Source: Eledone cirrhosa (Eukaryota). Taken from it: a DNA stretch of 64,000 nt. The notes beneath the pieces were generated by a model. That model had not been told where the DNA came from and ran no database searches. It saw only the letters and a program-made list of their open reading frames with translations. The position numbers and the translations under genes were made by a program. Shown here in pieces: positions 7,655 through 49,418 of this stretch. Location: NCBI GenBank assembly GCA_964016885.1, contig OZ024743.1, forward strand, positions 92,070,001-92,134,000, given 5' to 3'. The number at the start of each line of letters is the position of its first letter. The stretch's first letter is position 1.

Positions 7655-10600
7655 GTTATTGTTATTCCTTGAATCTCAGTCATTGATGTTGGTTAACTGG
7701 AAAGTCCGTTGGATTGAATATCAAGCCACTACCTGCAGCCTCAGATATTCAGGACGTATCGGAGGGTTCTTGCTGTTCCAAGCAAGCATGCCTTTTGAAG
7801 CGTTCCAAAAAGCGTGAAGGGGCCGATTTTCTTTAACCATCCCTGGAAACTTTTGGAGATAGTCCCCAGTGCGCCTATGACAATCGGGATCACTTTGACT
7901 TCATGGCAGTTCCAAATCCTTTTCACCTCCCACTTTAGGTCCTGGTATCGGTTAATTTTCTCCCTCTCCTTCTCTTGCACTCTCGTGTCGAACGGGCAGG
8001 CCACATCCACAATCAGGCACGATCTTTTTTCTTTGTCCACAACCACCAGGTCAGGTCTATTGTGTTCCAGTTTTTTGTCCGTCTGTATCCTAAAATCCCA
8101 CAGCACCTTCACCTGATTGTTCTCCATCACCGCCTCTGGCCTATGCTCATACCATTTCTCAGAATGTGGTAGATTGTTTACTTTGCACAGGTGCCAGTGG
8201 ATCACCCTGCCCATCACATCGTGTCTCCAGCCCTTATAGTGGGTCTGGGCTAGGTGTTTACACTCGGACACAATGTGAGCCACAGTCTCCTCTCTCTCTC
8301 CACAGATCCTGCACAGTGGGCTGGCCTCCTCCTTGTAGATATGGTGCTTCAACCACTTCGTTTTGAGGGCCTGCTCCTGCGCAGCCATTAGCATTCCTTC
8401 TGTAGCCTTTTTGAGGTCTCCTCTTCTCAACCAGTTCCATGTCTGTGGATCTCTAAATTCAGTTTTCTCAAAGAAGGTACTATGAAGGGGTTTTCCCTTA
8501 AGGCTGCTCTTCCTCCTTGATGTTATTTCCTCCCTGGACATCCCCTGGCCTACTGTCCCCTCCTTCAGTACAGCTCTGAGCATTGGCTCCTTACTATAGG
8601 TCACGTATTTGTATAGGTTGTTTTTCTCCATCTGAACACAGTCCTCTATGCTGATAAGACCTCTTCCACCCTCAGATCTCCTTAGGTAGAGTCTATCGAC
8701 ATCACTCCTCTTGTGGAACATGTTGTAGATAGTCAATAGCTTCCTAGTCTTCCTATCCATTTCTTTCTGTTCAGCAACATTCCATCTCAGAATTCCCGCA
8801 CTGTACCTAATAATAGACACAGCTCGGGAATTTACTGCGCTTATGGCATTTCTGCTGTTCAGATGTGACTTCAATACGCTCCTTACTCTCCGAATGTATT
8901 CAGTTCTTAACAATTCCTTCATTTTTTTGTTCTTTATGCCATCAGCCTCCAGAACGCCCAAATACTTGTATCCTTCCTCAGAGTCAATTTCCTTTATCAT
9001 CTCACCTGTTGGTATCTGGATCCCGTTACTTCTGCTCAACCTACCCCTCTTCATCACAATGACTCCACATTTACCAATACCAAACTGCATACATATATCA
9101 CTGCTGAAAATACGGACAGTGTCAACAAGCACATCCAACTCCTTCTCACTTTTCCCGAAGAGCTTAAGATCGTCCATGAAGAGGAGGTGATTGATGGTAA
9201 GCTCTCCCCTTCCCAACTTGTATCCTGCTCTCACTTTTCGCAGCATAATGGTCAAGGGCATCAGGGCAAGGACAAACAACAGAGGGGACAGGCTATCTCC
9301 CTGGAAGATACCTCTCTTGATCTTCACGCTTCCCAAGGATACTCCAGTTGATGTCAACTCTGTCTCCCAGGACCCCATACTCCTGCCTAGCAACTGTCTG
9401 ATGTTATCCGCCACCCTGAAGATCTCCAGGCTTTTGGTGATCCAGGAATGAGGCACCATGTCAAATGCCTTTCTGTAGTCTATCCATCCCATGGCAAGAT
9501 CAGTGTGTCTCCTCCTGCAATTCCCCATTACCATCTTATCAATAAGCAACTGGTCCTTTGTACCACGTGACTTCTTTCGGCATCCTTTCTGTTCGTCCGG
9601 TAACAAGTTGTTTGTGTGGGGGTGATGGTAGATTTCCTCAGACACAATGCTCGTCAACAGTTTCCACATTACGGGCAGACATGTGATAGGTCTATAGTTG
9701 GTAGCATCATTACCCTTGATTCGGTCTTTCATTATCAGAACTGTGGTACCTTTTGTCAACCACTCTGGCACCTCACCCGACACCAAGCAGTCATTGAACA
9801 TGGCCGTCAGCTTCGGGTGGAGGGATGTTAGATGTTTAATCCAATACCCCTGCACACCATCTGGGCCTGGCGATTTCCAGTTGGTTAGTTTTTTGGCTTG
9901 TCCCTTAAAAGTTTCAACTGTGATACTCAAATCAGTCTGTTGCTGTGCCTGCTCACCGATCTCCCTCTGTACTGTCTCAATCCACCCTGCCTGGGCATTG
10001 TGTCTAACATCCTGCTCCCATATTCCTCTCCAGAATGTTTTAGTTTGCTCCGCCCCAGGGATCAAGTCGTTGCCTCTTTCTTTGCCCTCAAGCTGTCCAA
10101 ACAGCATCTTCTGGTTGTTGTCGAACATGCGGTTCTGTTTATACTGACTGACTCTGTTCTCGTATCGCCTGATTTTTGCACTCTTTGCTACAATGCGTTG
10201 CTTCAATTCCTCTATGATAATATTTAGCTTTTTACTCCTAGTTTTGTATTTTATTTCCAGTCTATTTTTAGTGCCTATGTTTTTTAGTGTCCCATTCAGT
10301 AGTGACTCAAGCTTTCCTATGTCATTTCTCATTTCCCCGATTTGCCCACTCAGTCGCTTCTTCCACCACGGCTCTGCTCTTTCTTGTCTGTTGTTTCCTC
10401 TCGCTTTTATACCAAGTAGTTTCCTCACCGTATTTGCTGTTGCTCTGAGGATATTGTTGCACTGGTGAAGGCTCCTCGCCTCAAGGTATGGGATGACTTT
10501 GTTTACCTTAGCTGTTGTTTCTTTTAACTTTTTCCTGTCTACAAATCTTAGGTTCATAGGTCTCCCACTATCATTGTTCAATTCATCTACCACTAAATTT

Positions 10601-10875
10601 AGGATGTCAACCGAATCTTGTCCTAGCCCGTCAGCATTCATCTCCTCAGTGGCCGTATCTCTGTTCCAGGTATTATTTATCTCAGTACTCAGATCATTGT
10701 CTGCTTCGGGTGGTTCCTCCGTTCTCAGGACCTCCTCACCTTCATTTCCCACCGGCTCGCTTGTCTGGCATACTACACCCGCCATCTCCAAGCCATTCTC
10801 TCTGCTCAGTTCCTCCAGTTCCAGCTCGCTTATCCACCCATTAGTTCTTATTACCCGAGCCTGCCCGGCCATATT
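7655..10875 (-). mobile_element. R4/Dong-clade non-LTR retrotransposon, 5'-truncated, young
   Basis: Flanked by (TAA)n at 7629-7654 and 10880-10905; short 3'UTR; single uninterrupted ORF. Confidence 0.95.
7741..10872 (-). CDS. Reverse transcriptase + CCHC zinc knuckle + restriction-like endonuclease polyprotein
   Basis: KSPGPDG, NYRPITCL, IDYRKAFDMVPHSW, GIFQGDSLSPLLF, LFMDDLKL, CRICGEREETVAHIVSEC, RHD, RPDLVV...IVDVACP...EKINRYQDL. Confidence 0.95.
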   Translation of the reverse strand: MAGQARVIRTNGWISELELEELSRENGLEMAGVVCQTSEPVGNEGEEVLRTEEPPEADNDLSTEINNTWNRDTATEEMNADGLGQDSVDILNLVVDELNNDSGRPMNLRFVDRKKLKETTAKVNKVIPYLEARSLHQCNNILRATANTVRKLLGIKARGNNRQERAEPWWKKRLSGQIGEMRNDIGKLESLLNGTLKNIGTKNRLEIKYKTRSKKLNIIIEELKQRIVAKSAKIRRYENRVSQYKQNRMFDNNQKMLFGQLEGKERGNDLIPGAEQTKTFWRGIWEQDVRHNAQAGWIETVQREIGEQAQQQTDLSITVETFKGQAKKLTNWKSPGPDGVQGYWIKHLTSLHPKLTAMFNDCLVSGEVPEWLTKGTTVLIMKDRIKGNDATNYRPITCLPVMWKLLTSIVSEEIYHHPHTNNLLPDEQKGCRKKSRGTKDQLLIDKMVMGNCRRRHTDLAMGWIDYRKAFDMVPHSWITKSLEIFRVADNIRQLLGRSMGSWETELTSTGVSLGSVKIKRGIFQGDSLSPLLFVLALMPLTIMLRKVRAGYKLGRGELTINHLLFMDDLKLFGKSEKELDVLVDTVRIFSSDICMQFGIGKCGVIVMKRGRLSRSNGIQIPTGEMIKEIDSEEGYKYLGVLEADGIKNKKMKELLRTEYIRRVRSVLKSHLNSRNAISAVNSRAVSIIRYSAGILRWNVAEQKEMDRKTRKLLTIYNMFHKRSDVDRLYLRRSEGGRGLISIEDCVQMEKNNLYKYVTYSKEPMLRAVLKEGTVGQGMSREEITSRRKSSLKGKPLHSTFFEKTEFRDPQTWNWLRRGDLKKATEGMLMAAQEQALKTKWLKHHIYKEEASPLCRICGEREETVAHIVSECKHLAQTHYKGWRHDVMGRVIHWHLCKVNNLPHSEKWYEHRPEAVMENNQVKVLWDFRIQTDKKLEHNRPDLVVVDKEKRSCLIVDVACPFDTRVQEKEREKINRYQDLKWEVKRIWNCHEVKVIPIVIGALGTISKSFQGWLKKIGPFTLFGTLQKACLLGTARTLRYVLNI

Positions 10876-10933
10876 ATCATTATTATTATTATTATTATTA
10901 TTATTGAAGCTACAGGATATGTACCAATCCACC

Positions 10934-11206
10934 AATTCAGTGGATGGAAAAAAGCAAGCGTGGACTAAATTCCAAGACATTGAAAAAATCACTGCCTACT
11001 TGGTCGGTGGCAAATTCAAAAGAATCAATCACGTGACATCGAGGTTAATCAGTGAGGAGTGGGGTGTTAAAAAGACAGTATCCAAGCCATTACTATGAAC
11101 TATAGTAGCAGTTTTGTCAAATTTTTGCTCAACAAAATAATTTGGAGTTAATTATAAAGAATTAGTATATTTAGTCCACGCTTTCTTTTTTTCCATCCAC
11201 TGAATT
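10934..11206. mobile_element. MITE-like element with ~37-bp terminal inverted repeats
   Basis: aattcagtggatggaaaaaagcaagcgtggactaaat (10934-10970) is inverted at 11169-11206. Confidence 0.7.
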
Positions 11207-12667: not shown

Positions 12668-13564
12668 TCATTTTTTCGTGTTCAGTAGTGGTTTAAATTT
12701 TTCAATGAAGAATTCTTCTTTATATCTGCGGAAATGTTCGTTACCCTACCATATCTTGAAGAAAGGGAAGATTGTGAATTTTCCCTTCCCGCATGATGCA
12801 AAGTGTGCGCTACATGTGGTATTTCTGACTGTGGGGTCTTTAATTTGTTGTTTATGTACCCGGACTCTATCATGTAATCCCGTTCCGGTTTCCCCAATGT
12901 AATACTCTTTACACTGTGGACATGTTGCGCAATATATTAGGTTTTTCGTTTTGCAGTTCATGTTTGCATTGACCTTGAAATTATCATGGTTTTTGAAGGA
13001 CAACTGTTTGCCCTCTTCGATGAGTTCACAGGTTCCACATCTAGGGTCCCCGCATTTCGTCACTTGCATTGATTCCATGTTGGTCGTAAATTTTGCCTTG
13101 GTAATTAGTTTTTTAAGGTTGGGTGCTTGGCGTCTGCTATAAATTATCTGTGTGTTTTTTAAGAGTGCATTCATTTTGGTAGATTGCTGTAGAAACGGGA
13201 GATACTGCTTAGCAGTTTTCACAATATTGATGTTCCCTGGGTTGTGAGTGATGACAAAAGAGATAGCAGGGTTTTCTTTTTTATGTTGTGGGTTTGGTTT
13301 TCTCAGTGTTGTTATTGGGATGTTCTTAGCCTTGGCTGCGTTGATGAGTTTCATCGGGTATTCTTGTTTTTTAAGGAATTTTTTCAGGTCACATAATCTT
13401 TTTTCTTGTAGTACGGGGTGTGTTGCTACAGTGCATATGCGCCTTGCCATGTTGAAGGGAATGTTCCTTTTCGTATGTGAGGGGTATGCTGACCGGAAAT
13501 TTAAGTATTGGTGTGTGTCAGTGGGTTTGCAAAATAGGTCCGTTATGATATATTCGGTTTGCAA
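12668..13564 (-). pseudogene. Penelope RT thumb/linker + GIY-YIG endonuclease, one frameshift near the C-terminus
   Basis: TDLFCKPTDTHQYL, CGDPRCGTC, NLIYCATCPQCKEYYIGETG..L.DRVRVH; the shifted frame continues EHFRRYKEEFFIEKFKPLLNTKK*. Confidence 0.9.
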
Positions 13565-13589
13565 AATAGGTCCGTTATGATATATTCGG

Positions 13590-14203
13590 TTGTTTACTTA
13601 TACCTCTTAAAAGGGTCTCATTATAATTCCGTCCCACCTAGTAAACCTTTCTTTAGTCTAGCAGTACCAGTGAGAGACTTGATAGCTGTCCTGAGGTTAT
13701 AGTAACCAGAAATTGTTTTTTTACATTTAATTGTTTTTTAACACTCCCGGTTTTTTTCTATATATTTACCCCATATTGTTTTACTTACTGTTTCGACTTC
13801 CTCCCCCCCCCCTAGTATCTTCTTTGACCTCCTGCCCAGCTGTGGTTGGCACTATCAATGCACGACTGGGTTTCATCCACCCCCTATCCCTCTTTCTTCT
13901 ACTGGCAGGTTCAGCTACCCCCTCCCTCCACAAACTGCCATGATAGAATTATTATGTCTCAACAACAAACTTTTGACCAATCCTTGTGACAATCACTTTT
14001 ACCATATATGGAATTACCCCCTGAGAAGCTCGGCTATTCAAATACCAGGATAAAAATTTTCATTTAGTCCAGAATTAGCCGTCGAAACGGCTTGAGCTCA
14101 GCCGCCGGGGTCCTACTCGTTCCTATTACCCACTCTACTACCCTAAGTATTGAGTACTTTGGTGCGTTATGGTCCATCTAGGTTCCTTACCACATTTCCT
14201 TCG

Positions 14204-16716: not shown

Positions 16717-19700
16717 GTGTCTTACTCTTAGTCTTAGATTCTTCCGCACCGTTCGGCACATCGAGCAGTAAGTACTCGCCAACGGTCACGATCAGCGACA
16801 ACTTTTTCGAGACTGTGCCAGGTGATGTTGGCTGCCATCGGGTCCTTCCGGAACGTTCGTCACCAGGTGATCCCTGGGCAACCCCGCCTCCGTTTACCGC
16901 CAGGCGGAGTCCAGTTCATCGCTGTTTTCGAATGCCGTTCATTTGGCAGACACATATATGGCCAGCCAGACGGCACCGACGCTCCATGACCACTCTTTGT
17001 AGGGTCCACGACTCGGCTCTCCGCAGGATCTCCTCGTTTCGCACTCAGTTGCGCCAGGACACACGAAGGATCTTTCGCAGGAACCACTGGTGGAAAGCGT
17101 TCAGCCGTCTCTCTATTTTTGCTATACTCTTCCAGGTCTCGCTCGCATAAAGCACTGTCGGCAGCACGATGCCCTTGTACAGGCGGAGCTTGCTCTTGGT
17201 GCTAATGCATGAAGACGACCAGACTGGGCACAGCTGCTGGAAAACTGCGGCTCCTTTGCCTATCCGACAGTTGATGTCGAGCTCCGCGTCGCCGCTGCCT
17301 GTCAGGATGCTGTCCAGGTAGGTGAAGTGATCGACTTCCTCGAGGTCCTGTTGGTTGACTCTGATCACTGGACCTGTGTTGCTGGCCGTTCTCATGACCT
17401 TGGTCTTTTTGGCGTTGATTCTCAGGCCGATCTTTTCCGCACTTTCTTGTAGGGATGTTGTTAGGGCCTGCAGATCTGCACTGTTTTCAGCAATCAAAGC
17501 GATGTCGTCGGCGAATGCCAGGTCCCTCAGCCTCGACTGCCTTCTCCGTGGGATTCCTCGACCGGGTCCTTCATCCATTCGCCTTAGTACGAAATCGGCT
17601 GCCAGCAGGAACAACAGTGGAGAGAGAATGCAACCCTGTCTGACTCCGGAGACAATGTCAAAGAACTCCGTCACATCGGACTCAGTCCGCACGCAGCAGC
17701 TGGAGTTTTCATACAGGGCCTTGAAAATGGCGATGAATCTTGCAGGAATGCCGTACAGTTGCGCAACATTCCACAGCGACTCCCAGTGTACACTGTCGAA
17801 TGCCTTCTGGAAATCAATAAAATTGACCGCTAAAGGCTGTTGTAGCTCAACGCATTGTTCGAGAATTTTGCGTAGTGTAAAGATCTGTTCCGTGCAAGAT
17901 CGATTTTTTCGGAAGCCGGTTTGTTCCTCCCGGAGCACAGAGTCGATGGCCTGCCGGAGTCGACGCAGCAGCACAGTGCAGAACGCCTTGCCTGGGACTG
18001 ACAGCAATGTGATACCACGCCAGTTGTTGCAGTCTACCAGGTTTCCCTTCTTCGGCAGTTTGACGATGACACCGCGCTCCCACTCAAGGGGAACCCGACC
18101 AACCCTCCAGCAGTGGTTCATCAAGTCTGTCAACGCCGTTATCGTGCTCTCCTCACCGAATTTGAGCAGCTCAGCAGAGATCTCATCCAGTCCGCCTGCT
18201 TTGCCGTTCCTCAAGTGGCTAATCGCATCTCTCGTCACTTGCTTGGTGATATGGTCCTCCAGACTTTGAGTACCTCAGTGGTTGCTGGAGTCTCCGCGGT
18301 CAAGTCTATCAGGGCGACCGGATTTTGGTTGGTTAAGCCTCTCCCAGAAGTGCTCCATCCATCTCTGCTCCTGTTCCGCTCCAATGGTCAACGTCTTGTC
18401 ATTTTTGTCCTTCACTAACATGCTGGCACCGCTCGAAATTCCTGTCAACTCCCTCACGATGCGGAACAGTGCTTTTGTGTCGTTTCGACCAGCAGCTTCC
18501 TCTGCCTCAGCACCCTTTTTCTCCAGCCAGTCACGTTTATCCCGCCGGCAGCTTCGCTTTACCAGTCAGTTGATTTGGCGGTATACGGCATCTCTTTTCT
18601 TTTGGTCTTCCTCCGATCTGGCAGAATCTCGCTCGACTTTTGCCTTTTTTCGTCTGTAAATCAGGTCCCACGTTGGTTCTTGGATCCATTTTTCCCTTCT
18701 CGTTCCTCGTCTTCGGCCAATAGTTTCTTGTGCTGCCTCAGTCACCGCTGTCGTGAACATCGTCCATTGATCTTCCAGATCTGCAGCCTCTCTCAACTGC
18801 TGGAATCGGTTGTGTAGCGCCAGTTGGTACAGTCGCGCTTGACCGGGATACTTCAGCTTCTCCACTGCATGTCCGTTTCTTCAGGCGCAGTTGAAGTTCC
18901 GCACATAGTAGGTGGTGGTCTGAGTCCACGTCCGCACCTTGGTCCACTCTGACGTCACGTACCGAGGACCGCCAGCGCTGGTTGATGCAGATGTAGTCGA
19001 TCTCGTTTCGGCTTTTCTGGTCCGGAGACTTCCAAGTAGCGTTGTGAATCGCCTTGTGTTTGAAATAGGTGTTGCTAATGCACAGCTGCAGTCTCTTGCA
19101 GTTGTCCGTGGTGACCGCAGCAGAACCGAATGGCTCAGTAACCTGTTCCAGTCTCTGTCTGTTGCAGCCAATCTGAGCGTTGAAATCATCGATCAGTAGT
19201 TTGATGTCATGGTTGGGCAAGTTATTAAATGTGTCCTGCAGCTGTTTGTAGAAGGCATCCTTGTCGATGTCGGTTGCGTCATCAATCGGTGCGTAGCTCT
19301 GAACAACAGTGATTTTCGCATGCCCACTTTGAAAACGGGAGGTTATGATGCGCTCGCTGACTGGCTCCCATCCAAATCAATGCTCGAGTTGCTCGGGCGC
19401 TAAGCACAAGTCTAAAGCCATGAACGTGCTTGTCTTGGTGTCCAGAGTAGAGCAGAGTTGTGTCTCCACTGTCACTCATCTTTCCGCTGCCGGTCCAGAG
19501 CATTTCACTCACGCCCAGAATGTCCAGCTGGTAGTGGTCGAACTCGCGAAGTAGCTGAGCCAGCTTTCCTGCCTGGTGTAGTGTACGCACGTTCCAAGTT
19601 CCAATTCGCATCTTTGTTTTGGTGCTCAGAATCCGGCTCATTGGAACCCCCACGTCCTTTCGGCTTTGGTGAGGTCCGTCTAGTGTGGAGTGTTTCCCAC

Positions 19701-32937: not shown

Positions 32938-33750
32938 GGAATAGAATGAAACGAAATTTCATTTCTCACTCTTAGTACAGCACTTACTTAAATGTAAGTA
33001 TGTATGTATACGTACATACATATATGTATACAGACGTACAGTAGTATGTATATATATACATACATGCACACACATATATATATGCACGTATCGGTTTACC
33101 GAACATTTATTATAATGCTCGGTTTGTTTGCTTGTTTGTAAACAAACAAACAGCCCGGATTACGCCGTACAGTGTTTAGGCAACCACGTCACCTTTTTGT
33201 TCAACACTGACACAGGAACGATGTACTAGTTTCAAGCTTATTAGCTATCGTCAGCATCGTATACCTTCCTGCCAGATGGTTGAACGTCTGAAAGTATATA
33301 CTTTCCTTATGCATATTAACGGCTGAGCAGCCTAATTTGCATATCGAGTGAGTTCAGTCGACCAGGCGCATCGAAAACGATAAATGGAATAGAATGAAAC
33401 GAAATTTCATTTCTCACACTTAGTACGGCACTTACTTAAATGTAAGTATGTATGTATGTACACGTACATACATATATGTATACAGACGTACAGTAGTATG
33501 TATATATATACATACATACATGCACACATATATATATGCACGTATCGGTTTACCGAACATTTATTATAATGCTCGGTTTGTTTGTTTGTTTGTAAACAAA
33601 CAAACAGCCCGGATTACGCCGTACAGTGTTTAGGCAACCACGTCACCTTTTTGTTCAACACTGACACAGGAACGATGTACTAGTTTCAAGCTTATTAGCT
33701 ATCGTCAATGCCGTTAATATGCATAAGGAAAGTATATACTTTCAGACGTT
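32934..33750 (-). mobile_element. Tandem (447-bp period) Penelope-like terminal repeats plus short inverted segment
   Basis: 32934-33260 is repeated from 33381; 33710-33750 is the reverse complement of 33282-33322; (TA)n flanks; third copy at 50122-50530. Confidence 0.8.
33218..33260 (-). ncRNA. Type I hammerhead ribozyme motif
   Basis: acgatg-CTGACGA-tAGCT-aata-AGCTt-GAAAC-TA-GTA-catcgt; 6-bp stem I, intact core. Confidence 0.9.
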
Positions 33751-33757
33751 AATATAT

Positions 33758-33831
<74 letters not shown>

Positions 33832-33833
33832 GT

Positions 33834-33873
<40 letters not shown>

Positions 33874-34032
33874 TATGTGTGTGTATATGGTGTGAGTACC
33901 GAGAAGGCCACAAATCAGGGTAGTATTCTATGCATGTTGAGATGCAGAGTAGATATAGTGAATAACGAATCCTAGTTGGCATCAGTTATCATCGCAATTC
34001 ATTTCATTCCAGCTGAGGGAACAGAACCAACG

Positions 34033-34271
34033 TTAACCCTTTAGTTACAACCCGGCCAGAACCAACTCTGGTTCTATGAAATAAAACAACCTATTTTAAA
34101 AGTTTCCAATTTAAATTAAAATCTTCCAACATAATTTTATATAAGAACCTTACATTAAGTTACTATTTTAGTTATGAAATAATTAATAATTTTAACAAAT
34201 CTCTCGAAGTTCTTCATTAATTAATTGAAATAAAATGAATTTCATTAGAGATGTGGTCATGAAAGAGTTAA
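34033..34271. mobile_element. Possible piggyBac-type MITE
   Basis: TTAA-CCCTTT ... AAAGAG-TTAA termini. Confidence 0.4.
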
Positions 34272-34725
34272 ATAAATTGTAGTTCTCAATAACACAATGC
34301 ATTGCCCAGTCCGGGAATCGAACTCACGGCCTTATAATTATGAGCTCTCCCTCCTACACACTAGAACACATGTCTTCCCATACATGTCCCAGATGTACTT
34401 AAAACCACTAAACATCACCATCTATGATATACAAACTGACTACTCTGGTTGCTTAATTGTAAACTTTAAAGGAAAACCATATTTTGTGTCATGACTTTTA
34501 CTGTTCATTGCTCAAGTAATAAATGATGTTGAAGTAAAGTAGTGGGTAATGCTGAAACGTTTATCATTGGTAATAAATTTTAGAAAAATTATATCCACCT
34601 AATAGCAGGGTGTGGGACATACTGCAGAAATTATAACGTAAAATTATATGTCAAAAATATCGTCTTAGTTTTTTTTTACGCTGATCTCTTTATTTTTTTA
34701 AAGGGCAGAAATGATCGTGGGGGAG

Positions 34726-37700
34726 TATTAAATTTAAGGAAGTGGCTATATAGCCGGTCCCGGTAAATAGACTCCCAGGTTATTTAGCCGGTAAGAGTGT
34801 CAGACAGCATGAGTTGCGACCCGAGTTAAGACAATTGTTAAGACAATTTGAAATCTTTTCCACCATCAATTGTTAAAAAAACAAGTTAAAATCATTTAGT
34901 CATCATCTTATTATAATTCTACTTGTGTTTTGTCCCTTCGTAACATACGTTATGCTTTCGTTACATACACATATTTAATGAGTTACATACACACACATCT
35001 ACTGAGTTACATACACACATATCTACTGAGTTACATACACACACACAGATCTACTGAGTTACATACACACATATCTACTGAGTTACATACACACACATAT
35101 CTAATGAGTTACATACACACACATCTACTGAGTTACATACACACATATCTACTGAGTTACATACACACATATCTACTGAGTTACATACACACACATCTAC
35201 TGAGTTACATACACACACAACTACTGAGTTACATACACACATATCTACTGAGTTACATACACACACATCTACTGAGTTACATACACACATATCTACTGAG
35301 TTACATACACACATATCTACTGAGTTACATACACACACAACTACTGAGTTACATACACACACATATCTACTGAGTTACATACACACACATCTACTGAGTT
35401 ACATACACACACATCTACTGAGTTACATACACACATATCTACTGAGTTACATACACACACATCTACTGAGTTACATACACACATATCTACTGAGTTACAT
35501 ACACACACAACTACTGAGTTACATACACACATATCTACTGAGTTACATACACACACATCTACTGAGTTACATACACACACATCTACTGAGTTACATACAC
35601 ACACATCTACTGAGTTACATACACACACATCTACTGAGTTACATACACACATATCTACTGAGTTACATACACACACATATCTACTGAGTTATATACACAC
35701 ACATCTACTGAGTTACATACACACACATCTACTGAGATACATACACACACATCTACTGAGTTACATACACACACATATCTACTGAGTTACATACACACAC
35801 ATCTACTGAGTTACTTACACACACATCTACTGAGTTACATACACACATATCTACTGAGTTACATACACACACAACTACTGAGTTACATACACACACATCT
35901 ACTGAGTTACATACACACACATCTACTGAGTTACATACACACACATATCTACTGAGTTACATACACACATATCTACTGAGTACATACACACACATCTACT
36001 GAGTTACATAGACACATATCTACTGAGTTACATACACACACATCTACTGAGTTACATACACACATATCTACTGAGTTACATACACACACATATCTACTGA
36101 GTTATATACACACACATCTACTGAGTTACATACACACACATCTACTGAGATACATACACACATATCTACTGAGTTACATACACACATATCTACTGAGTTA
36201 CATACACACACATATCTACTGAGTTAAATACACACACATCTACTGAGTTACATACACACACAACTAATGTGTTACATACACACACATCTACTGAGTTACA
36301 TACACACACATTTACTGAGTTACATACACACACATTTACTGAGTTACATACACACACATCTACTGAGTTACATACACACACATCTACTGAGTTACATACA
36401 CACACATTTACTGAGTTACATACACACACATTTACTGAGATACATATACACACATCTACTGAGTTACATACACACACATCTACTGAGTTACATACACACA
36501 CATCTACTGAGTTACATACACACATATCTACTGAGTTACATACACACACATCTACTGAGTTACATACACACACATATCTACTGAGTTACATACACACATA
36601 TCTACTGAGTTACATACACACATATCTACTGAGTTACAGACACACACATATCTACTGAGTTACATACACACATATCTACTGAGTTACATACACACACATC
36701 TACTGAGTTACATACACACACAACTACTGAGTTACATACACACATATCTACTGAGTTACATACACACATATCTACTGAGTTACATACACACACATATCTA
36801 CTGAGTTACATACACACACATCTACTGAGTTACATACACACACATCTACTGAGTTACATACACACACATCTACTGAGTTACATACACACACATATCTACT
36901 GAGTTACATACACACATATCTACTGAGTTACATACACACATATCTACTGAGTTACATACACACACAACTACTGTGTTACATACACACATATCTACTGAGT
37001 TACATACACACACATCTACTGAGTTACATACACACATATCTACTGAGTTACATACACACACATTTACTGAGTTACATACACACATATCTACTGAGTTACA
37101 TACACACACATATCTACTGAGTTACATACACACACATCTACTGAGTTACATACACACACATCTACTGAGTTACATACACACATATCTACTGAGTTACATA
37201 CACACACATATCTACTGAGTTACATACACACATCTACTGAGTTACATACACACACATCTACTGAGTTACATACACACACATCTACTGAGTTACATACACA
37301 CATATCTACTGAGTTACATACACACACAACTACTGAGTTACATACACACATATCTACTGAGTTACATACACACACATCTACTGAGTTACATACACACACA
37401 TCTACTGAGTTACATACACACACATCTACTGAGTTACATACACACACATCTACTGAGTTACATACACACATATCTACTGAGTTACATACACACACATATC
37501 TACTGAGTTATATACATACACATCTACTGAGTTACATACACACACATCTACTGAGATACGTACACACACATCTACTGAGTTACATACACACACATATCTA
37601 CTGAGTTACATACACACACATCTACTGAGTTACTTACACACACATCTACTGAGTTACATACACACATATCTACTGAGTTACATACACACACAACTACTGA

Positions 37701-40700
37701 GTTACATACACACACATCTACTGAGTTACATACACACACATCTACTGAGTTACATACACACACATATCTACTGAGTTACATACACACATATCTACTGAGT
37801 ACATACACACACATCTACTGAGTTACATACACACATATCTACTGAGTTACATACACACACATCTACTGAGTTACATACACACATATCTACTGAGTTACAT
37901 ACACACACATATCTACTGAGTTACATACACACACATCTACTGAGTTACATACACACACAACTACTGTGTTACATACACACACATCTACTGAGTTACATAC
38001 ACACACATTTACTGAGTTACATACACACACATTTATTGAGTTACATACACACACATCTACTGAGTTACATACACACACATCTACTGAGTTACATACACAC
38101 ACATTTACTGACTTACATACACACACATTTACTGAGATACATATACACACATCTACTGAGTTACATACACACACATCTACTGAGTTACATACACACACAT
38201 CTACTGAGTTACATACACACATATCTACTGAGTTACATACACACACATCTACTGAGTTACATACACACACATATCTACTGAGTTACATACACACATATCT
38301 ACTGAGTTACATACACACATATCTACTGAGTTACATACACACACATATCTACTGAGTTACATACACACATATCTACTGAGTTACATACACACACATCTAC
38401 TGAGTTACATACACACACATCTACTGAGTTACATACACACACATATCTACTGAGTTACATACACACATATCTACTGAGTTACATACACACATATCTACTG
38501 AGTTACATACACACACAACTACTGTGTTACATACACACATATCTACTGAGTTACATACACACACATCTACTGAGTTACATACACACATATCTACTGAGTT
38601 ACATACACACACATTTACTGAGTTACATACACACATATCTACTGAGTTACATACACACACATATCTACTGAGTTACATACACACACATCTACTGAGTTAC
38701 ATACACACACATCTACTGAGTTACATACACACATATCTACTGAGTAACATACACACACATATCTACTGAGTTACATACACACATCTACTGAGTTACATAC
38801 ACACACATCTACTGAGTTACATACACACACATCTACTGAGTTACATACACACACATCTACTGAGTTACATACACACACATCTACTGAGTTACATACACAC
38901 ACATCTACTGAGATACATACACACACATCTACTGAGTTACATACACACATATCTACTGAGTTACATACACACACATCTACTGAGTTACATACACACACAT
39001 ATCTACTGAGTTACATACACACACATCTACTGAGTTACATACACACACATCTACTGAGATACATACACACACATCTACTGAGTTACATACACACATATCT
39101 ACTGAGTTACATACACACACATCTACTGAGTTACATACACACATATCTACTGAGTTACATACACACACATCTACTGATTTACATACACACATATCTACTG
39201 AGTTACATACACACACATATCTACTGAGTTACATACACACACATCTACTGAGTTACATACACATATCTACTGAGTTACATACACATCTACTGAGTTACAT
39301 ACACACACATATCTACTGAGTTACATACACACACATCTACTGAGTTACATACACACACATCTACTGAGTTACATACACACATATCTACTGAGTTTCATAC
39401 ACACACAACTACTGTGTTACATACACACATATCTACTGAGTTACATACACACACATCTACTTAGTTACATACACACATATCTACTGAGTTACATACACAT
39501 ACATCTACTGAGTTACATACACACATATCTACTGAGTTACATACACACACATATCTACTGAGTTACATACACACACATCTACTGAGTTACATACACACAC
39601 ATCTACTGAGTTACATACACACATATCTACTGAGTTACATACACACATATCTACTGAGTTACATACACACACATCTACTGAGTTACATACACACACATCT
39701 ACTGAGTTACATACACACACATCTACTGAGTTACATACACACACATCTACTGAGTTACATACACACATATCTACTGAGTTACATGCACACACATCTGAGT
39801 TACATACACACATATCTACTGAGTTACATACACACATATATCTACTGAATTACATACACACACATCTACTAAGTTACATACACACACATTTACTGAGTTA
39901 CATACACACATATCTACTGAGTTACATACACACACATCTACTGAGTTACATACACACATATCTACTGAGTTACATACACACACATATCTACTGAGTTACA
40001 TACACACACATATCTACTGAGTTACATACACGCACATCTACTGAGTTACATACACACACATATCTACTGAGTTACATACACACATATCTACTGAGTTACA
40101 TACACACACATCTACTGAGTTGCATACACACATATCTACTGAGTTACATACACACACATCTACTGAGTTACATACACACATATCTACTGAGTTACATACA
40201 CACACATATCTACTAAGTAACATACACACACATCTACTGAGTTACATACACATATATCTACTGAGTAACATACACACACATATCTACTGAGTTACATACA
40301 CACACATCTACTGAGTTACACACACACACGTCTACTGAGTTACATACACACATCTACTGAGTTACATACACACACATATCTACTGAGTTACATACACACA
40401 CATCTACTGAGTTACATACACACACATCTACTGAGATACATACACACACATCTACTGAGTTACATACACACATATCTACTGAGTTACATACACACACATA
40501 TCTACTGAGTTACATACACACATCTACTGAGTTACATACACACACATCTACTGAGTTACATACACACACATCTACTGAGTTACATACACACACATCTACT
40601 GAGTTACATACACACATATCTACTGAGTTACATGCACACACATCTGAGTTACATACACACATATCTACTGAGTTACATACACACACATATCTACTGAGTT

Positions 40701-43700
40701 ACATACACACACATCTACTGAGTTACATACACACGCATATCTACTGAGTTACATACACACACATCTACTGAGTTACATACACACACATCTACTGAGATAC
40801 ATACACACACATCTACTGAGTTACATACACACATATCTACTGAGTTACATACACACACATCTACTGAGTTACATACACACACATATCTACTGAGTTACAT
40901 ACACACACATCTACTGAGTTACATACACACACATCTACTGAGATACATACACACACATCTACTGAGTTACATACACACATATCTACTGAGTTACATACAC
41001 ACACATCTACTGAGTTACATACACACATATCTACTGAGTTACATACACACACATCTACTGATTTACATACACACATATCTACTGAGTTACATACACACAC
41101 ATATCTACTGAGTTACATACACACACATCTACTGAGTTACATACACATATCTACTGAGTTACATACACATCTACTGAGTTACATACACACACATATCTAC
41201 TGAGTTACATACACACACATCTACTGAGTTACATACACACACATCTACTGAGTTACATACACACATATCTACTGAGTTACATACACACACAACTACTGTG
41301 TTACATACACACATATCTACTGAGTTACATACACACACATCTACTGAGTTACATACACACATATCTACTGAGTTACATACACATACATCTACTGAGTTAC
41401 ATACACACATATCTACTGAGTTACATACACACACATATCTACTGAGTTACATACACACACATCTACTGAGTTACATACACACACATCTACTGAGTTACAT
41501 ACACACATATCTACTGAGTTACATACACACATATCTACTGAGTTACATACACACACATCTACTGAGTTACATACACACACATCTACTGAGTTACATACAC
41601 ACACATCTACTGAGTTACATACACACACATCTACTGAGTTACATACACACATATCTACTGAGTTACATGCACACACATCTGAGTTACATACACACATATC
41701 TACTGAGTTACATACACACATATATCTACTGAATTACATACACACACATCTACTAAGTTACATACACACACATTTACTGAGTTACATACACACATATCTA
41801 CTGAGTTACATACACACACATCTACTGAGTTACATACACACATATCTACTGAGTTACATACACACACATATCTACTGAGTTACATACACACACATATCTA
41901 CTGAGTTACATACAGGCACATCTACTGAGTTACATACACACACATATCTACTGAGTTACATACACACATATCTACTGAGTTACATACACACACATCTACT
42001 GAGTTGCATACACACATATCTACTGAGTTACATACACACACATCTACTGAGTTACATACACACATATCTACTGAGTTACATACACACACATATCTACTAA
42101 GTTACATACACACACATCTACTGAGTTACATACACATATATCTACTGAGTAACATACACACACATATCTACTGAGTTACATACACACACATCTACTGAGT
42201 TACATACACACACGTCTACTGAGTTACATACACACATCTACTGAGTTACATACACACACATCTACTGAGTTACATACACACATATCTACTGAGTTACATG
42301 CACACACATCTGAGTTACATACACACATATCTACTGAGTTACATACACACATATATCTACTGAATTACATACACACACATCTACTAAGTTACATACACAC
42401 ACATTTACTGAGTTACATACACACATATCTACTGAGTTACATACACACACATCTACTGAGTTACATACACACATATCTACTGAGTTACATACACACACAT
42501 ATCTACTGAGTTACATACACACACATATCTACTGAGTTACATACAGGCACATCTACTGAGTTACATACACACACATATCTACTGAGTTACATACACACAT
42601 ATCTACTGAGTTACATACACACACATCTACTGAGTTGCATACACACATATCTACTGAGTTACATACACACACATCTACTGAGTTACATACACACATATCT
42701 ACTGAGTTACATACACACACATATCTACTAAGTTACATACACACACATCTACTGAGTTACATACACATATATCTACTGAGTAACATACACACACATATCT
42801 ACTGAGTTACATACACACACATCTACTGAGTTACATACACACACGTCTACTGAGTTACATACACACATCTACTGAGTTACATACACACACATATCTACTG
42901 AGTTACATACACACACATCTACTGAGTTACATACACACACATCTACTGAGATACATACACACACATCTACTGAGTTACATACACACATATCTACTGAGTT
43001 ACATACACACACATCTACTGAGTTACATACACACACATATCTACTGAGTTACATACACACACATCTACTGAGTTACATACACACACATCTACTGAGATAC
43101 ATACACACACATCTACTGAGTTACATACACACATATATACTGAGTTACATACACACACATCTACTGAGTTACATACAGACATATCTACTGAGTTACATAC
43201 ACACACATCTACTGATTTACATACACACATATCTACTGAGTTACATACACACACATATCTACTGAGTTACATACACACACATCTACTGAGTTACATACAC
43301 ATATCTACTGAGTTACATACACATCTACTGAGTTACATACACACACATATCTACTGAGTTACATACACATACATCTACTGAGTTACATACACACACATCT
43401 ACTGAGTTACATACACACATATCTACTGAGTTACATACACACACAACTACTGTGTTACATACACACATATCTACTGAGTTACATACACACACATCTACTG
43501 AGTTACATACACTTATATCTACTGAGTTACATACACATACATCTACTGAGTTACATACACACATATCTACTGAGTTACATACACACACATATCTACTGAG
43601 TTACATACACACATATCTACTGAGTTACATACACACACATATCTACTGAGTTACATACACACATATCTACTGAGTTACATACACACACATCTACTGAGTT

Positions 43701-46700
43701 ACATACACACACAACTACTGAGTTACATACACACATATCTACTGAGTTACATACACACATATCTACTGAGTTACATACACACACATATCTACTGAGTTAC
43801 ATACACACACATCTACTGAGTTACATACACACACATCTACTGAGTTACATACACACACATCTACTGAGTTACATACACACACATATCTACTGAGTTACAT
43901 ACACACATATCTACTGAGTTACATACACACATATCTACTGAGTTACATACACACACAACTACTGTGTTACATACACACATATCTACTGAGTTACATACAC
44001 ACACATCTACTGAGTTACATACACACATATCTACTGAGTTACATACACACACATTTACTGAGTTACATACACACATATCTACTGAGTTACATACACACAC
44101 ATATCTACTGAGTTACATACACACACATCTACTGAGTTACATACACACACATCTACTGAGTTACATACACACATATCTACTGAGTAACATACACACACAT
44201 ATCTACTGAGTTACATACACACATCTACTGAGTTACATACACACACATCTACTGAGTTACATACACACACATCTACTGAGTTACATACACACACATCTAC
44301 TGAGTTACATACACACACATCTACTGAGTTACATACACACACATCTACTGAGATACATACACACACATCTACTGAGTTACATACACACATATCTACTGAG
44401 TTACATACACACACATCTACTGAGTTACATACACACACATATCTACTGAGTTACATACACACACATCTACTGAGTTACATACACACACATCTACTGAGAT
44501 ACATACACACACATCTACTGAGTTACATACACACATATCTACTGAGTTACATACACACACATCTACTGAGTTACATACACACATATCTACTGAGTTACAT
44601 ACACACACATCTACTGATTTACATACACACATATCTACTGAGTTACATACACACACATATCTACTGAGTTACATACACACACATCTACTGAGTTACATAC
44701 ACATATCTACTGAGTTACATACACATCTACTGAGTTACATACACACACATATCTACTGAGTTACATACACACACATCTACTGAGTTACATACACACACAT
44801 CTACTGAGTTACATACACACATATCTACTGAGTTTCATACACACACAACTACTGTGTTACATACACACATATCTACTGAGTTACATACACACACATCTAC
44901 TTAGTTACATACACACATATCTACTGAGTTACATACACATACATCTACTGAGTTACATACACACATATCTACTGAGTTACATACACACACATATCTACTG
45001 AGTTACATACACACACATCTACTGAGTTACATACACACACATCTACTGAGTTACATACACACATATCTACTGAGTTACATACACACATATCTACTGAGTT
45101 ACATACACACACATCTACTGAGTTACATACACACACATCTACTGAGTTACATACACACACATCTACTGAGTTACATACACACACATCTACTGAGTTACAT
45201 ACACACATATCTACTGAGTTACATGCACACACATCTGAGTTACATACACACATATCTACTGAGTTACATACACACATATATCTACTGAATTACATACACA
45301 CACATCTACTAAGTTACATACACACACATTTACTGAGTTACATACACACATATCTACTGAGTTACATACACACACATCTACTGAGTTACATACACACATA
45401 TCTACTGAGTTACATACACACACATATCTACTGAGTTACATACACACACATATCTACTGAGTTACATACACGCACATCTACTGAGTTACATACACACACA
45501 TATCTACTGAGTTACATACACACATATCTACTGAGTTACATACACACACATCTACTGAGTTGCATACACACATATCTACTGAGTTACATACACACACATC
45601 TACTGAGTTACATACACACATATCTACTGAGTTACATACACACACATATCTACTAAGTAACATACACACACATCTACTGAGTTACATACACATATATCTA
45701 CTGAGTAACATACACACACATATCTACTGAGTTACATACACACACATCTACTGAGTTACACACACACACGTCTACTGAGTTACATACACACATCTACTGA
45801 GTTACATACACACACATATCTACTGAGTTACATACACACACATCTACTGAGTTACATACACACACATCTACTGAGATACATACACACACATCTACTGAGT
45901 TACATACACACATATCTACTGAGTTACATACACACACATATCTACTGAGTTACATACACACATCTACTGAGTTACATACACACACATCTACTGAGTTACA
46001 TACACACACATCTACTGAGTTACATACACACACATCTACTGAGTTACATACACACATATCTACTGAGTTACATGCACACACATCTGAGTTACATACACAC
46101 ATATCTACTGAGTTACATACACACACATATCTACTGAGTTACATACACACAAATCTACTGAGTTACATACACACGCATATCTACTGAGTTACATACACAC
46201 ACATCTACTGAGTTACATACACACACATCTACTGAGATACATACACACACATCTACTGAGTTACATACACACATATCTACTGAGTTACATACACACACAT
46301 CTACTGAGTTACATACACACACATATCTACTGAGTTACATACACACACATCTACTGAGTTACATACACACACATCTACTGAGATACATACACACACATCT
46401 ACTGAGTTACATACACACATATCTACTGAGTTACATACACACACATCTACTGAGTTACATACACACATATCTACTGAGTTACATACACACACATCTACTG
46501 ATTTACATACACACATATCTACTGAGTTACATACACACACATATCTACTGAGTTACATACACACACATCTACTGAGTTACATACACATATCTACTGAGTT
46601 ACATACACATCTACTGAGTTACATACACACACATATCTACTGAGTTACATACACACACATCTACTGAGTTACATACACACACATCTACTGAGTTACATAC

Positions 46701-49418
46701 ACACATATCTACTGAGTTACATACACACACAACTACTGTGTTACATACACACATATCTACTGAGTTACATACACACACATCTACTGAGTTACATACACAC
46801 ATATCTACTGAGTTACATACACATACATCTACTGAGTTACATACACACATATCTACTGAGTTACATACACACACATATCTACTGAGTTACATACACACAC
46901 ATCTACTGAGTTACATACACACACATCTACTGAGTTACATACACACATATCTACTGAGTTACATACACACATATCTACTGAGTTACATACACACACATCT
47001 ACTGAGTTACATACACACACATCTACTGAGTTACATACACACACATCTACTGAGTTACATACACACACATCTACTGAGTTACATACACACATATCTACTG
47101 AGTTACATGCACACACATCTGAGTTACATACACACATATCTACTGAGTTACATACACACATATATCTACTGAATTACATACACACACATCTACTAAGTTA
47201 CATACACACACATTTACTGAGTTACATACACACATATCTACTGAGTTACATACACACACATCTACTGAGTTACATACACACATATCTACTGAGTTACATA
47301 CACACACATATCTACTGAGTTACATACACACACATATCTACTGAGTTACATACACGCACATCTACTGAGTTACATACACACACATATCTACTGAGTTACA
47401 TACACACATATCTACTGAGTTACATACACACACATCTACTGAGTTGCATACACACATATCTACTGAGTTACATACACACACATCTACTGAGTTACATACA
47501 CACATATCTACTGAGTTACATACACACACATATCTACTAAGTTACATACACACACATCTACTGAGTTACATACACATATATCTACTGAGTAACATACACA
47601 CACATATCTACTGAGTTACATACACACACATCTACTGAGTTACATACACACACGTCTACTGAGTTACATACACACATCTACTGAGTTACATACACACACA
47701 TATCTACTGAGTTACATACACACACATCTACTGAGTTACATACACACACATCTACTGAGATACATACACACACATCTACTGAGTTACATACACACATATC
47801 TACTGAGTTACATACACACACATCTACTGAGTTACATACACACACATATCTACTGAGTTACATACACACACATCTACTGAGTTACATACACACACATCTA
47901 CTGAGATACATACACACACATCTACTGAGTTACATACACACATATATACTGAGTTACATACACACACATCTACTGAGTTACATACAGACATATCTACTGA
48001 GTTACATACACACACATCTACTGATTTACATACACACATATCTACTGAGTTACATACACACACATATCTACTGAGTTACATACACACACATCTACTGAGT
48101 TACATACACATATCTACTGAGTTACATACACATCTACTGAGTTACATACACACACATATCTACTGAGTTACATACACACACATCTACTGAGTTACATACA
48201 CACACATCTACTGAGTTACATACACACATATCTACTGAGTTACATACACACACAACTACTGTGTTACATATACACATATCTACTGAGTTACATACACACA
48301 CATCTACTGAGTTACATACACACATATCTACTGAGTTACATACACATACACATACATCTACTGAGTTACATACACACATATCTACTGAGTTACATACACA
48401 CACATATCTACTGAGTTACATACACACACATCTACTGAGTTACATACACACACATCTACTGAGTTACATACACACATATCTACTGAGTTACATACACACA
48501 TATCTACTGAGTTACATACACACACATCTACTGAGTTACATACACACACATCTACTGAGTTACATACACACACATCTACTGAGTTACATACACACACATC
48601 TACTGAGTTACATACACACATATCTACTGAGTTACATGCACACACATCTGAGTTACATACACACATATCTACTGAGTTACATACACACACATCTACTGAG
48701 TTACATACACACATATCTACTGAGTTACATACACACATATCTACTGAGTTACATACACACACATCTACTGAGTTACATACACACACATCTACTGAGTTAC
48801 ATACACACACATCTACTGAGTTACATACACACACATCTACTGAGTTACATACACACATATCTACTGAGTTACATGCACACACATCTGAGTTACATACACA
48901 CACATCTACTGATTTACATACACACATATCTACTGAGTTACATACACACACATATCTACTGAGTTACATACACACACATCTACTGAGTTACATACACACA
49001 CGTCTACTGAGTTACATACACACATCTACTGAGTTACATACACACACATCTACTGAGTTACATACACACACATCTACTGAGATACATACACACACATCTA
49101 CTGAGTTACATACACACATATCTACTGAGTTACATACACACACATCTACTGAGTTACATACACACACATTTACTGAATTTTAGCATACACACACATTTAA
49201 GAATTTTAGCAGAATCAAATATTTTCGAAATTAAGAATTTTAGCAGAAAGTCACAACCTGGGTTCTAAAACACTATTTATTATTTATTGGTAATCTAAGC
49301 TTCCAGGAACCCCCGGCTAGAGTTGCGTCCCTTTAGGGTTTACCGATAAAATAAGCTTAAAAGCATGTTTGTCTGTTTTGCCGGGACCGGCTACGTAGCC
49401 TATTCTTAAATTTAATAT
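34726..49418. mobile_element. Putative non-autonomous TIR DNA transposon enclosing the minisatellite
   Basis: Left tattaaatttaaggaagtggctatatagccggtcccggtaaatagac versus right (reverse complement) tattaaatttaagaataggctacgtagccggtcccggcaaaacagac. Confidence 0.65.
34960..49196. repeat. ~14.2-kb minisatellite, 24-bp unit TCTACTGAGTTACATACACACA(C/T)A with 20-26-bp variants
   Basis: Uninterrupted tandem array, roughly 590 units by length. Confidence 0.98.

Follow-up and report, generated by a model that had tools for sequence, protein, structure and literature searches.

The 64,000-nucleotide stretch of Eledone cirrhosa DNA analysed here (the window) contains a 14-kb minisatellite enclosed by terminal inverted repeats (TIRs), as the initial annotation had proposed. 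TRF placed the array at 34960–49196 (period 24, 588.7 copies, 91% matches). The features of the locus are:

34729–34737, + strand: left target-site duplication (TSD), TAAATTTAA, 9 bp, identical to 49407–49415
34738–49406, + strand: whole element, a MITE copy swollen by an internal minisatellite, 14,669 bp (ends from family base frequencies and the TSD scan)
34738–34959, + strand: left MITE arm, 222 bp, 83–92% identity to other copies
34738–34775, + strand: left TIR, beginning GGAAG and containing a 12-bp near-palindrome, 28/38 identities to the right TIR
34743–34794, + strand: pair of direct repeats within the left end, with a spacing of 34 bp in this copy and 35–36 bp in others
34960–49196, + strand: 24-bp minisatellite, ~589 units
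49197–49406, + strand: right MITE arm, 210 bp
49368–49406, − strand: right TIR, whose last base is T where the family has C
49407–49415, + strand: right TSD, TAAATTTAA, 9 bp

Between the array borders and the outer element ends there are 222 bp on the left and 210 bp on the right, close to the ~230 bp first estimated. Positions 34726–34775 align with the reverse complement of 49368–49418 with 40 identities in 49 columns, in agreement with the ~45-bp imperfect inverted repeats described initially, and with strict gap costs the flank-versus-flank local score was 52, against a shuffle maximum of 38 (0 of 2000 doublet shuffles reached 52). With permissive gap costs the same comparison did not rise above the shuffles (69 versus a maximum of 82), and the repeat search of the window was dominated by microsatellites; proof of the inverted ends rests on the family to which the element belongs. 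Contigs of other copies part from the window sequence behind 49405, and the letters at this locus could equally be read as a 10-bp duplication accompanied by loss of the terminal C, in place of the 9-bp duplication listed above. The right arm has a rearranged array junction and misses a 25-bp segment that is present in other copies and satellite-forming elsewhere. A short-read contig, which may derive from the assembled sample, covers 34175–34794 with no differences to the window; the right junction was bridged by no contig from the sequencing runs. None of the runs with the element was listed as RNA, and an Rfam search of 33500–35300 yielded no match.

The family consists of many similar, short, non-coding copies with TIRs of ~38 bp (weak similarity extends to ~70 bp), dispersed in the genome and each flanked by its own 9-bp AT-rich duplication, all of which are MITE characters. 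Most plain copies measure 390–550 bp (typically ~490 bp) and usually carry one 24-bp unit. A first look gave 902 candidates for one arm and 267 for the other, and the copy number is at least ~160, a bound derived from 99 TIR-core matches at a match rate of 20/64. The ends are GG, with the two left G in 27 and 29 of 31 copies and the right ones in 24 and 27 of 31. For the TSD scan we retained 32 of 40 candidates, removing 8 with weak end matches (<17/24). A 9-bp duplication was exact in 13 of these 32 copies and had at most one mismatch in 21 (null expectations, 0.3% and 1.3%), whereas each of the other lengths from 7 to 13 bp was exact in at most 2. Among 14 further copies, 11 showed a 9-bp TSD matching at ≥7 of 9 positions. 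The TSDs of the 32 copies were 91% AT.

These duplications bear directly on the suggestion, made with reserve in the initial annotation, of a T2-MITE-like Kolobok element with TTAA targets. At the window copy, TTAA followed by purines does occur at both ends (34734–34737 and 49406–49409), TTAA and RR ends are typical of Kolobok, and a Kolobok-type MITE, Xmix, seeded the Xstir repeat of Xenopus according to PMC6004289. Nevertheless, TTAA was found at both junctions in none of the 32 copies and at the left junction in 3, and the duplication measures 9 bp, so that the chance of a Kolobok origin is next to nil; the family's GG ends fit the RR dinucleotide but do not discriminate. TTAA here is a chance part of the 9-bp AT-rich duplication, and the symmetry noticed ~8 bp beyond it is real and arises because the target site TTAAATTTAA, which equals its own reverse complement, was duplicated as a 9-bp direct repeat. 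Of the initial reading, the small non-autonomous element with an interior expanded ~30-fold (14,669 bp versus ~490 bp in plain copies) stood, and the Kolobok/TTAA assignment fell.

Sequence features point instead to Mutator or Merlin as the putative superfamily. Mutator-like elements, as described for the Aedes Muta families in PMC5225508, share with our MITE a TSD of 8–10 bp, non-autonomous derivatives and a palindromic motif close to the end, accompanied by a subterminal repeat. However, their TIRs are typically longer than 100 bp (<60 bp in 2 of 14 Aedes families) as against ~38 bp here, and we do not file the family as a member; in addition, the Aedes repeats lie in the TIRs, whereas those of the Eledone cirrhosa MITE are mainly internal (PMC5225508). 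Merlin elements, by the account in PMC8101967, have GG ends, TIRs of 24–462 bp, an 8- or 9-bp TSD and, in some families, internal tandem repeats; the terminal GG, TIR length and 9-bp TSD of our family fall within these limits. Merlin elements are abundant in the genome (447 candidates), and an exact 9-bp TSD was likewise present in 10 of 19 measured copies, several within TA runs, but their readable TIRs start with GGC, unlike the GGA of the MITE, and their TSDs are 71% AT (n = 9) versus 91% (n = 32). The searches for an autonomous partner were negative within their scope. None of the 12 PF10551 (MULE) matches, all checked over 10 kb, ended in the MITE TIR, with one of these loci holding a nested MITE fragment; none of 50 loci checked among 150 scored loci (447 IS1595-type Merlin transposase candidates) carried it either; and 12 loci chosen for perfect TIRs were MITEs, fragments or a second subfamily. 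The PF20700 profile gave no match, and its controls gave no signal. We found no description of the family in the literature, although it may already be catalogued, and the accessible part of the octopus repeat-annotation paper PMC13282606 does not discuss MITE-derived satellites.

The commonest unit of the window array is the single unit found in short MITE copies. There, it is bounded by AGTTACAT and AGTTCCAT, an 8-bp near-direct repeat (7/8 match) with its halves 24 bp apart. Among 18 single-unit copies, the downstream 8-mer is exact in 11 and differs by a single change in 5. Exact junction patterns were recovered from 21 single-unit and 10 multi-unit copies. The MITE also contains longer direct-repeat pairs at 25, 34–36 and 35 bp. 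Arrays of 25/26-bp and 19-bp units match segments of its right arm and adjoin MITE sequence, and the same MITE probably seeded a 35-bp array as well. The pair at 34743–34794 is the likely seed of the 35-bp array at G000:C1:33.02 Mb; 68 TIR-core matches are spaced at 35 bp. As a separate matter, expansion driven by hairpins was rejected: four units fold worse than shuffled sequences on both strands (z = +2.5 and +2.7).

Unit numbers vary enormously between copies. Among 42 complete copies, for which arrays were actively sought so that the numbers are not frequencies, 24 had 0–1 units and 10 had 2–19, followed by single copies with 67, 70, 80, 102, 193, 439, 588 and 8,504. Some of the 2-unit counts are probably matches within a SINE-like insert. 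We located 14 arrays of ≥50 units, the largest reaching ~7,800 units (184 kb, with one TIR), and all 14 abut MITE arm sequence in the same orientation; in seven, one end is missing or incomplete, and some arm sequence remains in every case. Exact 35-mer matches fell within located arrays in 2,517 of 2,695 cases (178 were not located), and all 47 matches of a four-unit pattern lay in arm-linked arrays. One pair of ends is separated by 262 kb and has a TSD of 7/9 by direct reading, for which ungapped end-finding gave 4/9 because the left TIR of that pair has a deletion. The short copies with none or few units and the flanks shared by other arrays, both of which the initial annotation had proposed to look for, thus exist, and its opposite scenario, with independent insertions as ends and units occurring away from these flanks, is not what we observed: there is one element with one TSD, and all located arrays lie beside arms.

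Within the window array, some growth appears recent, as indicated by these internal duplications:

38206–41902, + strand: recent block duplication, copy 1 (period 225 units, 5.44 kb)
43648–47342, + strand: recent block duplication, copy 2, partner of 38206–41902
38862–42098, + strand: nested 78-unit duplication (1.88-kb period; 38862–40214 versus 40746–42098)

The two copies of the large block differ by 3 mismatches and 2 gap bases over 3.7 kb, and those of the nested one by 3 mismatches over 1,353 bp. Given that these ~5.4-kb and ~1.9-kb duplications are 99.8–99.9% identical while the arms differ by 5% from the family majority, the latest array growth must be much younger than the insertion. 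Such near-identical blocks, including ~1-Mb segments on C2 (99.6%), could also be assembly duplications, and a length inflated by mis-assembly would agree with the few differences in the 5.44-kb-period block. We regard this as highly unlikely for the window array, because it shows several nested periods (26, 64, 78, 147 and 225 units), each with distinct differences, because ~360 units remain after removal of one 225-unit block, and because many other loci have comparable arrays flanked by intact TSDs. The feature in the window is very probably a copy of a ~490-bp non-coding MITE (GG...CC ends, 9-bp TSD) in which a single 24-bp unit now numbers ~589, likely expanded in place long after insertion.

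Instead of growing locally, one long array might have arisen once and the swollen element transposed to give the other long copies. Two groups of copies agree with this: C3:321.06 Mb (439 units) and C3:321.75 Mb (193 units) are sisters (support 98/90) that differ in their TSDs and share private unit variants, and the multi-unit copies C1426a, L112 and L186, each inserted at its own site, group together with 100/99 support. Together with the C2:9.80/C2:11.47 Mb pair, these are three small clades made up wholly of multi-unit copies, implying that some first duplications preceded transposition or that arrays were converted between copies. Across the family, the evidence runs the other way. In the left-arm tree, 11 multi-unit copies required 9 changes (shuffled mean, 9.9), and in the both-arm tree, from which copy L006 was left out for its low right-arm identity, the AU test rejected a single clade for the 8 long arrays (p = 0.026); these trees are star-like, with 2–4 well-supported branches and bootstraps that had not converged. 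The arms of the long arrays are no closer than the family background (pairwise identity 85–89%, one pair 92%), and their divergence did not differ between multi-unit (0.078, n = 12) and single-unit copies (0.085, n = 24; p = 0.37). Each long array has private unit variants besides the ancestral unit, and DNA transposition is reported in PMC6431247 to fall above ~6 kb of cargo. Since the long arrays are not one clade and have private variants, repeated growth in place is favoured. A single origin followed by transposition is very improbable and appears largely refuted family-wide, and would apply at most to small arrays within subclades.

Growth in place alone does not explain one copy that combines subfamily-B arms with a subfamily-A array. 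This copy would be expected if a pre-existing satellite had been captured by or converted into the MITE, which would then be carrier and not birthplace, as would three long arrays entirely without a left arm (C2:10.595, C2:12.747 and C2:403.565 Mb). Capture is also the reading that the review PMC12628747 gives for miDNA4, a Tc1/mariner MITE of Xenopus tropicalis (Scalvenzi and Pollet 2014, as related in the reviews PMC12628747 and PMC9659126). We nonetheless consider it unlikely here. The single-unit state is the commonest one, the unit sitting within unique MITE sequence among overlapping micro-repeats; every array that was located borders on arm sequence, always in one orientation; and the same 490 bp have supplied three or four different units. 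Moreover, the right junction of the arm-poor C2:10.595 Mb array is almost letter-for-letter that of the arm-bearing C2:11.66 Mb array, and contigs of a second species carry the arms with the single-unit junction, while leaving the unique left flank uncovered. The unit thus appears native to the MITE.

With this unit inside, the family would have spread in a single ancient burst through a Mutator or Merlin transposase, and slippage or microhomology repair between AGTTACAT and AGTTCCAT would have produced the first duplication. Unequal exchange or replication-based block duplication may then have enlarged the arrays, for which copies with 2–19, tens, hundreds and thousands of units are seen. Further segments of the same MITE would have given the 25/26-bp and 19-bp arrays and the 35-bp-spaced TIR-core run. 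Small arrays could still transpose; big ones would be immobile, with insertions or segmental duplications stripping them of their ends. We propose no function and regard the process as presumably one of neutral or selfish DNA turnover. Because sister copies range from one unit to a 184-kb block, the family likely records the birth of satellite DNA. More tentatively, and with less than even confidence, we suggest that the extinct 490-bp MITE was a satellite nursery, in which four direct-repeat pairs (24, 25/26, 19 and 35 bp) each gave rise to a satellite independently at many loci. Small arrays would have been carried around by transposition and exchanged among subfamilies through gene conversion, and a single insertion would have expanded to a chromosomal satellite block whose ends, now 262 kb from each other, still show a readable TSD (~0.4 Mb of arrays over C2 10.6–12.8 Mb). 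If so, a single genome would preserve every stage between the lone unit and a block of heterochromatin scale, and the point of departure would be known to the base.

Satellites born from MITEs are already known (miDNA4 and Xstir of Xenopus, in the accounts cited); what is new is the completeness, scale and multiplicity. The Eledone cirrhosa MITE resembles miDNA4, as the reviews portray it, in having a monomer present as one copy or in variable arrays within the same ends, short direct repeats at the monomer edges (proposed there to drive copy change) and arrays that later lose the element ends. It differs in superfamily, in its 9-bp TSD and in a unit that appears native rather than captured. 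It has also yielded three or four types of unit, and it has 14-kb arrays that keep both TIRs and an exact TSD, besides arrays of up to 184 kb that keep one TIR. Like Xmix (a T2-MITE of Kolobok) and Xstir, it amplified an internal segment into a tandem family; their TTAA target and proposed stem-loop mechanism using two neighbouring elements, as given in PMC6004289 and PMC12628747, contrast with the 9-bp TSD, one element and hairpin-free unit found here. The 35-bp run at C1:33.02 Mb recalls the Tetris foldback element and TIR-220 satellite of Drosophila virilis, where TIR-derived repeats grow into arrays, but the account in PMC4079207 has those repeats built into long TIRs, whereas our main arrays are internal.

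The origin of a satellite from unique sequence is usually inferred once the starting point is gone. In this family, one can still see the ancestral state with a single unit, the site of insertion and dozens of replicates of the same age, which have ended up with anything from one unit to thousands. It can thus be tested directly whether the runaway copies are set apart by their sequence (micro-repeat length, first duplication) or by their position on the chromosome, and at what rate arrays lengthen when measured against a dated insertion. The family is also a warning for repeat annotation, which breaks a TIR element with an array for its interior into a simple repeat and two orphan ends. Control DNA totalling 391 kb contained no non-microsatellite array of ≥1.2 kb. 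Further long minisatellites occur near some expanded copies, indicating that the region matters as well as the MITE.

The inverted repeats that the initial annotation had described outside both ends of the 24-bp array were recovered ~220 bp beyond either array end as imperfect terminal inverted repeats (TIRs; 40 identities in 49 columns). Under strict gap costs they score 52, where the best shuffle reached 38; with loose gap costs the match does not exceed chance. Base frequencies in the MITE family place the ends at GGAAG and GGAAT and, therefore, the termini of the window element at 34738 and 49406. Its target-site duplication (TSD) derives from a palindromic site, which accounts for the symmetry rightly noticed past the TTAA. 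At this locus alone, a 10-bp duplication with loss of a terminal C fits equally well, 9 bp being the family-wide length.

Features of the window
5233-6399 (-), reverse-transcriptase ORF (RVT_1)
7741-10995 (-), reverse-transcriptase ORF (RVT_1)
12746-13597 (-), weak GIY-YIG match, below cut-off
17045-18274 (-), reverse-transcriptase ORF (RVT_1)
~34050-34350, immediately left of the element, very high-copy repeat pieces with read depth far above that of the MITE
34729-34737 and 49407-49415, TSD TAAATTTAA
34738-49406, MITE copy
34960-49196, 24-bp array, 588.7 copies (TRF)
49162-49224, hybrid right junction

In place of the usual right junction, this copy has a unit fused to 11 bases taken from a 34-36-bp sub-repeat of the arm itself. 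The element contains no recognisable gene, the ORFs inside it being read-throughs of the repeat, and its left end had no match in Rfam. The three reverse-transcriptase ORFs (one of 1,084 aa) and the GIY-YIG match represent LINE-like and possibly also Penelope-like retroelements.

The left flank matched 902 and the right flank 267 first-look candidate places in the 3.0-Gb assembly (G000; contigs C, individually fetched loci L; the window is C4:92,070,001-92,134,000), of which 40 per flank were scored; among the first 29 left-arm loci besides the window, 24 had the right arm inside the fetched 1.5 kb. In microsatellite density and in its wealth of Merlin elements (PMC8101967), the assembly may be like that of an octopod. 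Among the 32 copies with good ends (out of 40 candidates), a 9-bp TSD was exact in 13 and had at most one mismatch in 21. Mismatched pairs gave rates of 0.3% and 1.3%, respectively, and other lengths (7, 8, 10-13 bp) were exact in at most two. We class the element as a superfamily-unassigned MITE with a 9-bp TSD. Target sites of these 32 copies are 91% AT. The family comprises at least ~160 copies, a bound based on 99 TIR-core matches outside one array and a pattern matched by 20 of 64 sampled TIRs. In a second species, contigs match both arms and show the single-unit junction.

The superfamily tentatively suggested at first, Kolobok, requires a TTAA target (PMC6004289); we rejected it, as none of the 32 copies has TTAA at both ends and the TSD is 9 bp. 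This length is compatible both with Mutator, described as having 8-10-bp TSDs and usually long TIRs (PMC5225508), and with Merlin, described as having GG ends, TIRs of 24-462 bp and 8-9-bp TSDs (PMC8101967). The MITE TIR was used at none of the genome's 12 PF10551 matches and at none of 50 Merlin loci checked out of 447 candidates. Merlin copies in this genome have an exact 9-bp TSD in 10 of 19 cases, several within TA runs; they start with GGC and occupy sites (71% AT, n=9) less AT-rich than those of the MITE. We estimate Mutator to be about an even call, Merlin a somewhat weaker though serious candidate, and any other superfamily improbable. Merlin transposons are abundant (L247-L296); some have open frames of 330 aa, TIRs beginning with GGC and TSDs of 8-9 bp, often located inside TA runs. 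A MULE-transposase family carries Foldback-like TIRs of 15-bp tandem repeats, ~45 copies in one TIR (L167, L168, L173, L175; e.g., C1468:282.5-285.6 kb).

Short copies lacking an array, predicted initially, do occur: across the genome, exact junction patterns identified 21 copies with a single unit and 10 with several. In short copies, the single unit begins at AGTTACAT, and AGTTCCAT comes 24 bp on; of 18 single-unit copies, 11 have the latter exactly and five differ from it by one change. In one copy (L023), the unit interior is deleted between short repeats. Since the unit forms no hairpin on folding, its first duplication would likely have involved slippage or microhomology repair rather than hairpins. 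A 19-unit array (L007:1501-2424) already has a four-unit higher-order pattern of one G-type and three T-type units.

We located 14 arrays of at least 50 units, and all 14 adjoin MITE arm sequence in one common orientation, as anticipated if arrays of this unit share their flanks. They contain 2,517 of 2,695 exact 35-mer matches; 178 have no assigned location. Seven retain both TIRs, with TSDs matching at 7/9 to 9/9 positions.

Arrays of the 24-bp unit
Window, both TIRs and TSD, 589 units
C3:321.06 Mb, both TIRs and TSD, 439 units
C3:321.75 Mb, both TIRs and TSD, 193 units
C8:26.93 Mb, both TIRs and TSD, 102 units
C1426, both TIRs and TSD, 80 units
C2:251.77 Mb, both TIRs and TSD, about 69 units
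C4:47.28 Mb, both TIRs and TSD, about 66 units
C28:105.93 Mb, full right arm, left arm cut or missing, at least 210 units
C2:403.57 Mb, full right arm, left arm cut or missing, at least 145 units
C3:318.28 Mb, full right arm, left arm cut or missing, 69 units
C2:10.595 Mb, 308 units
C2:11.472-11.656 Mb, 184 kb, about 7,800 units
C2:12.531-12.686 Mb, 155 kb
C2:12.747-12.793 Mb, 46 kb

On C2, 262,424 bp separate a left TIR (12,531,207) from a right TIR (12,793,630), with flanks CAAAATATT and TAAAATATA matching at 7/9 positions and ~48 kb of foreign DNA inside (an ~880-bp satellite and other DNA). This span sits in ~1-Mb segmental repeats: across C2:10.59-12.80 Mb (L099-L104, L115-L126, L157-L158, L210-L246), one junction, composed of 24-bp array, partial right arm, 19-bp array and ~880-bp satellite, occurs in three copies spaced ~1.05 Mb, two of them 99.6% identical over a 4.1-kb flank. 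These could be real segmental repeats or partly assembly duplication. Unrelated long minisatellites lie close to expanded copies (43 bp x at least 233, L226, C2:12.50 Mb; 38 bp x 38, L142, C2:9.80 Mb region), a hint that the region itself favours expansion. In 391 kb of control DNA there were no non-microsatellite arrays of at least 1.2 kb, a rough comparison as the controls flank other transposons.

The arrays might have grown in place or been carried by transposition. The arms form a star tree whose bootstraps did not converge; on the left-arm tree, the 11 multi-unit copies require 9 changes versus 9.9 when shuffled. A single clade for the eight long arrays, a group chosen by unit number after that tree was known, was rejected (AU p=0.026), and every long array has private unit variants alongside the ancestral unit. 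Arm divergence did not differ between multi-unit (0.078) and single-unit copies (0.085; p=0.37). In the window array, duplicated blocks of 78 and 225 units are 99.8-99.9% identical, whereas the arms differ from the family majority by 5.2%. If the assembly is correct, the most recent growth, at the very least, would thus be younger than the insertion by a factor of tens. Against purely in-place growth, three small clades are entirely multi-unit with differing insertion sites, and small arrays have therefore probably moved by transposition. One copy (L143, C14:23.356 Mb) combines an 18-unit array of the first subfamily's type (A) with arms of a second subfamily (B), suggesting conversion between MITE copies, again counter to a purely in-place model. 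Subfamily B (also L180, L183, L184) differs in its interior and is shorter at the right end, and its other members lack the downstream micro-repeat.

The same MITE has seeded other arrays. A 25-bp right-arm segment bounded by direct repeats, absent from the window copy, forms arrays at C3:318.19-318.28 Mb (88 kb, including an 8.5-kb insertion at 318,237,331 within the 25/26-bp array; L191-L192) and C2:403.57 Mb (9.4 kb), and its shortened 19-bp form makes arrays of 1.9, 10.8 and 12.7 kb on C2. At C1:33,020,125-33,022,629, match positions show 68 occurrences of the TIR core spaced by 35 bp (about 72 units), the spacing of a direct repeat in the MITE left end, and an opposite TIR lies at a distance of 1 kb (33,019,093); this run is likely a fourth satellite, built from the TIR itself.

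Satellite growth inside MITEs is already known from Xenopus miDNA4 and Xmix/Xstir (PMC12628747, PMC9659126), and miDNA4 works in the same way. As far as these reviews describe miDNA4, the present family differs from it in superfamily, in having a unit that apparently arose from micro-repeats of the element itself, in yielding three or four unit types from a single MITE, and in array scale with MITE ends still readable. Our literature search, whose scope lay outside Repbase, Dfam and subscription journals, found no description of this family.

Many copies carry a SINE-like repeat at about one position in the right arm (L009, L012, L013, L020, L027; C3:318.193 Mb), which reflects either a hot spot for insertion or a subfamily that carries the SINE. 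Tandem segmental repeats bearing MITE copies or pieces occur at C3:236.11-236.15 Mb (L064-L067; ~12-kb period) and C17:15.754 Mb (L068; 1.4 kb).
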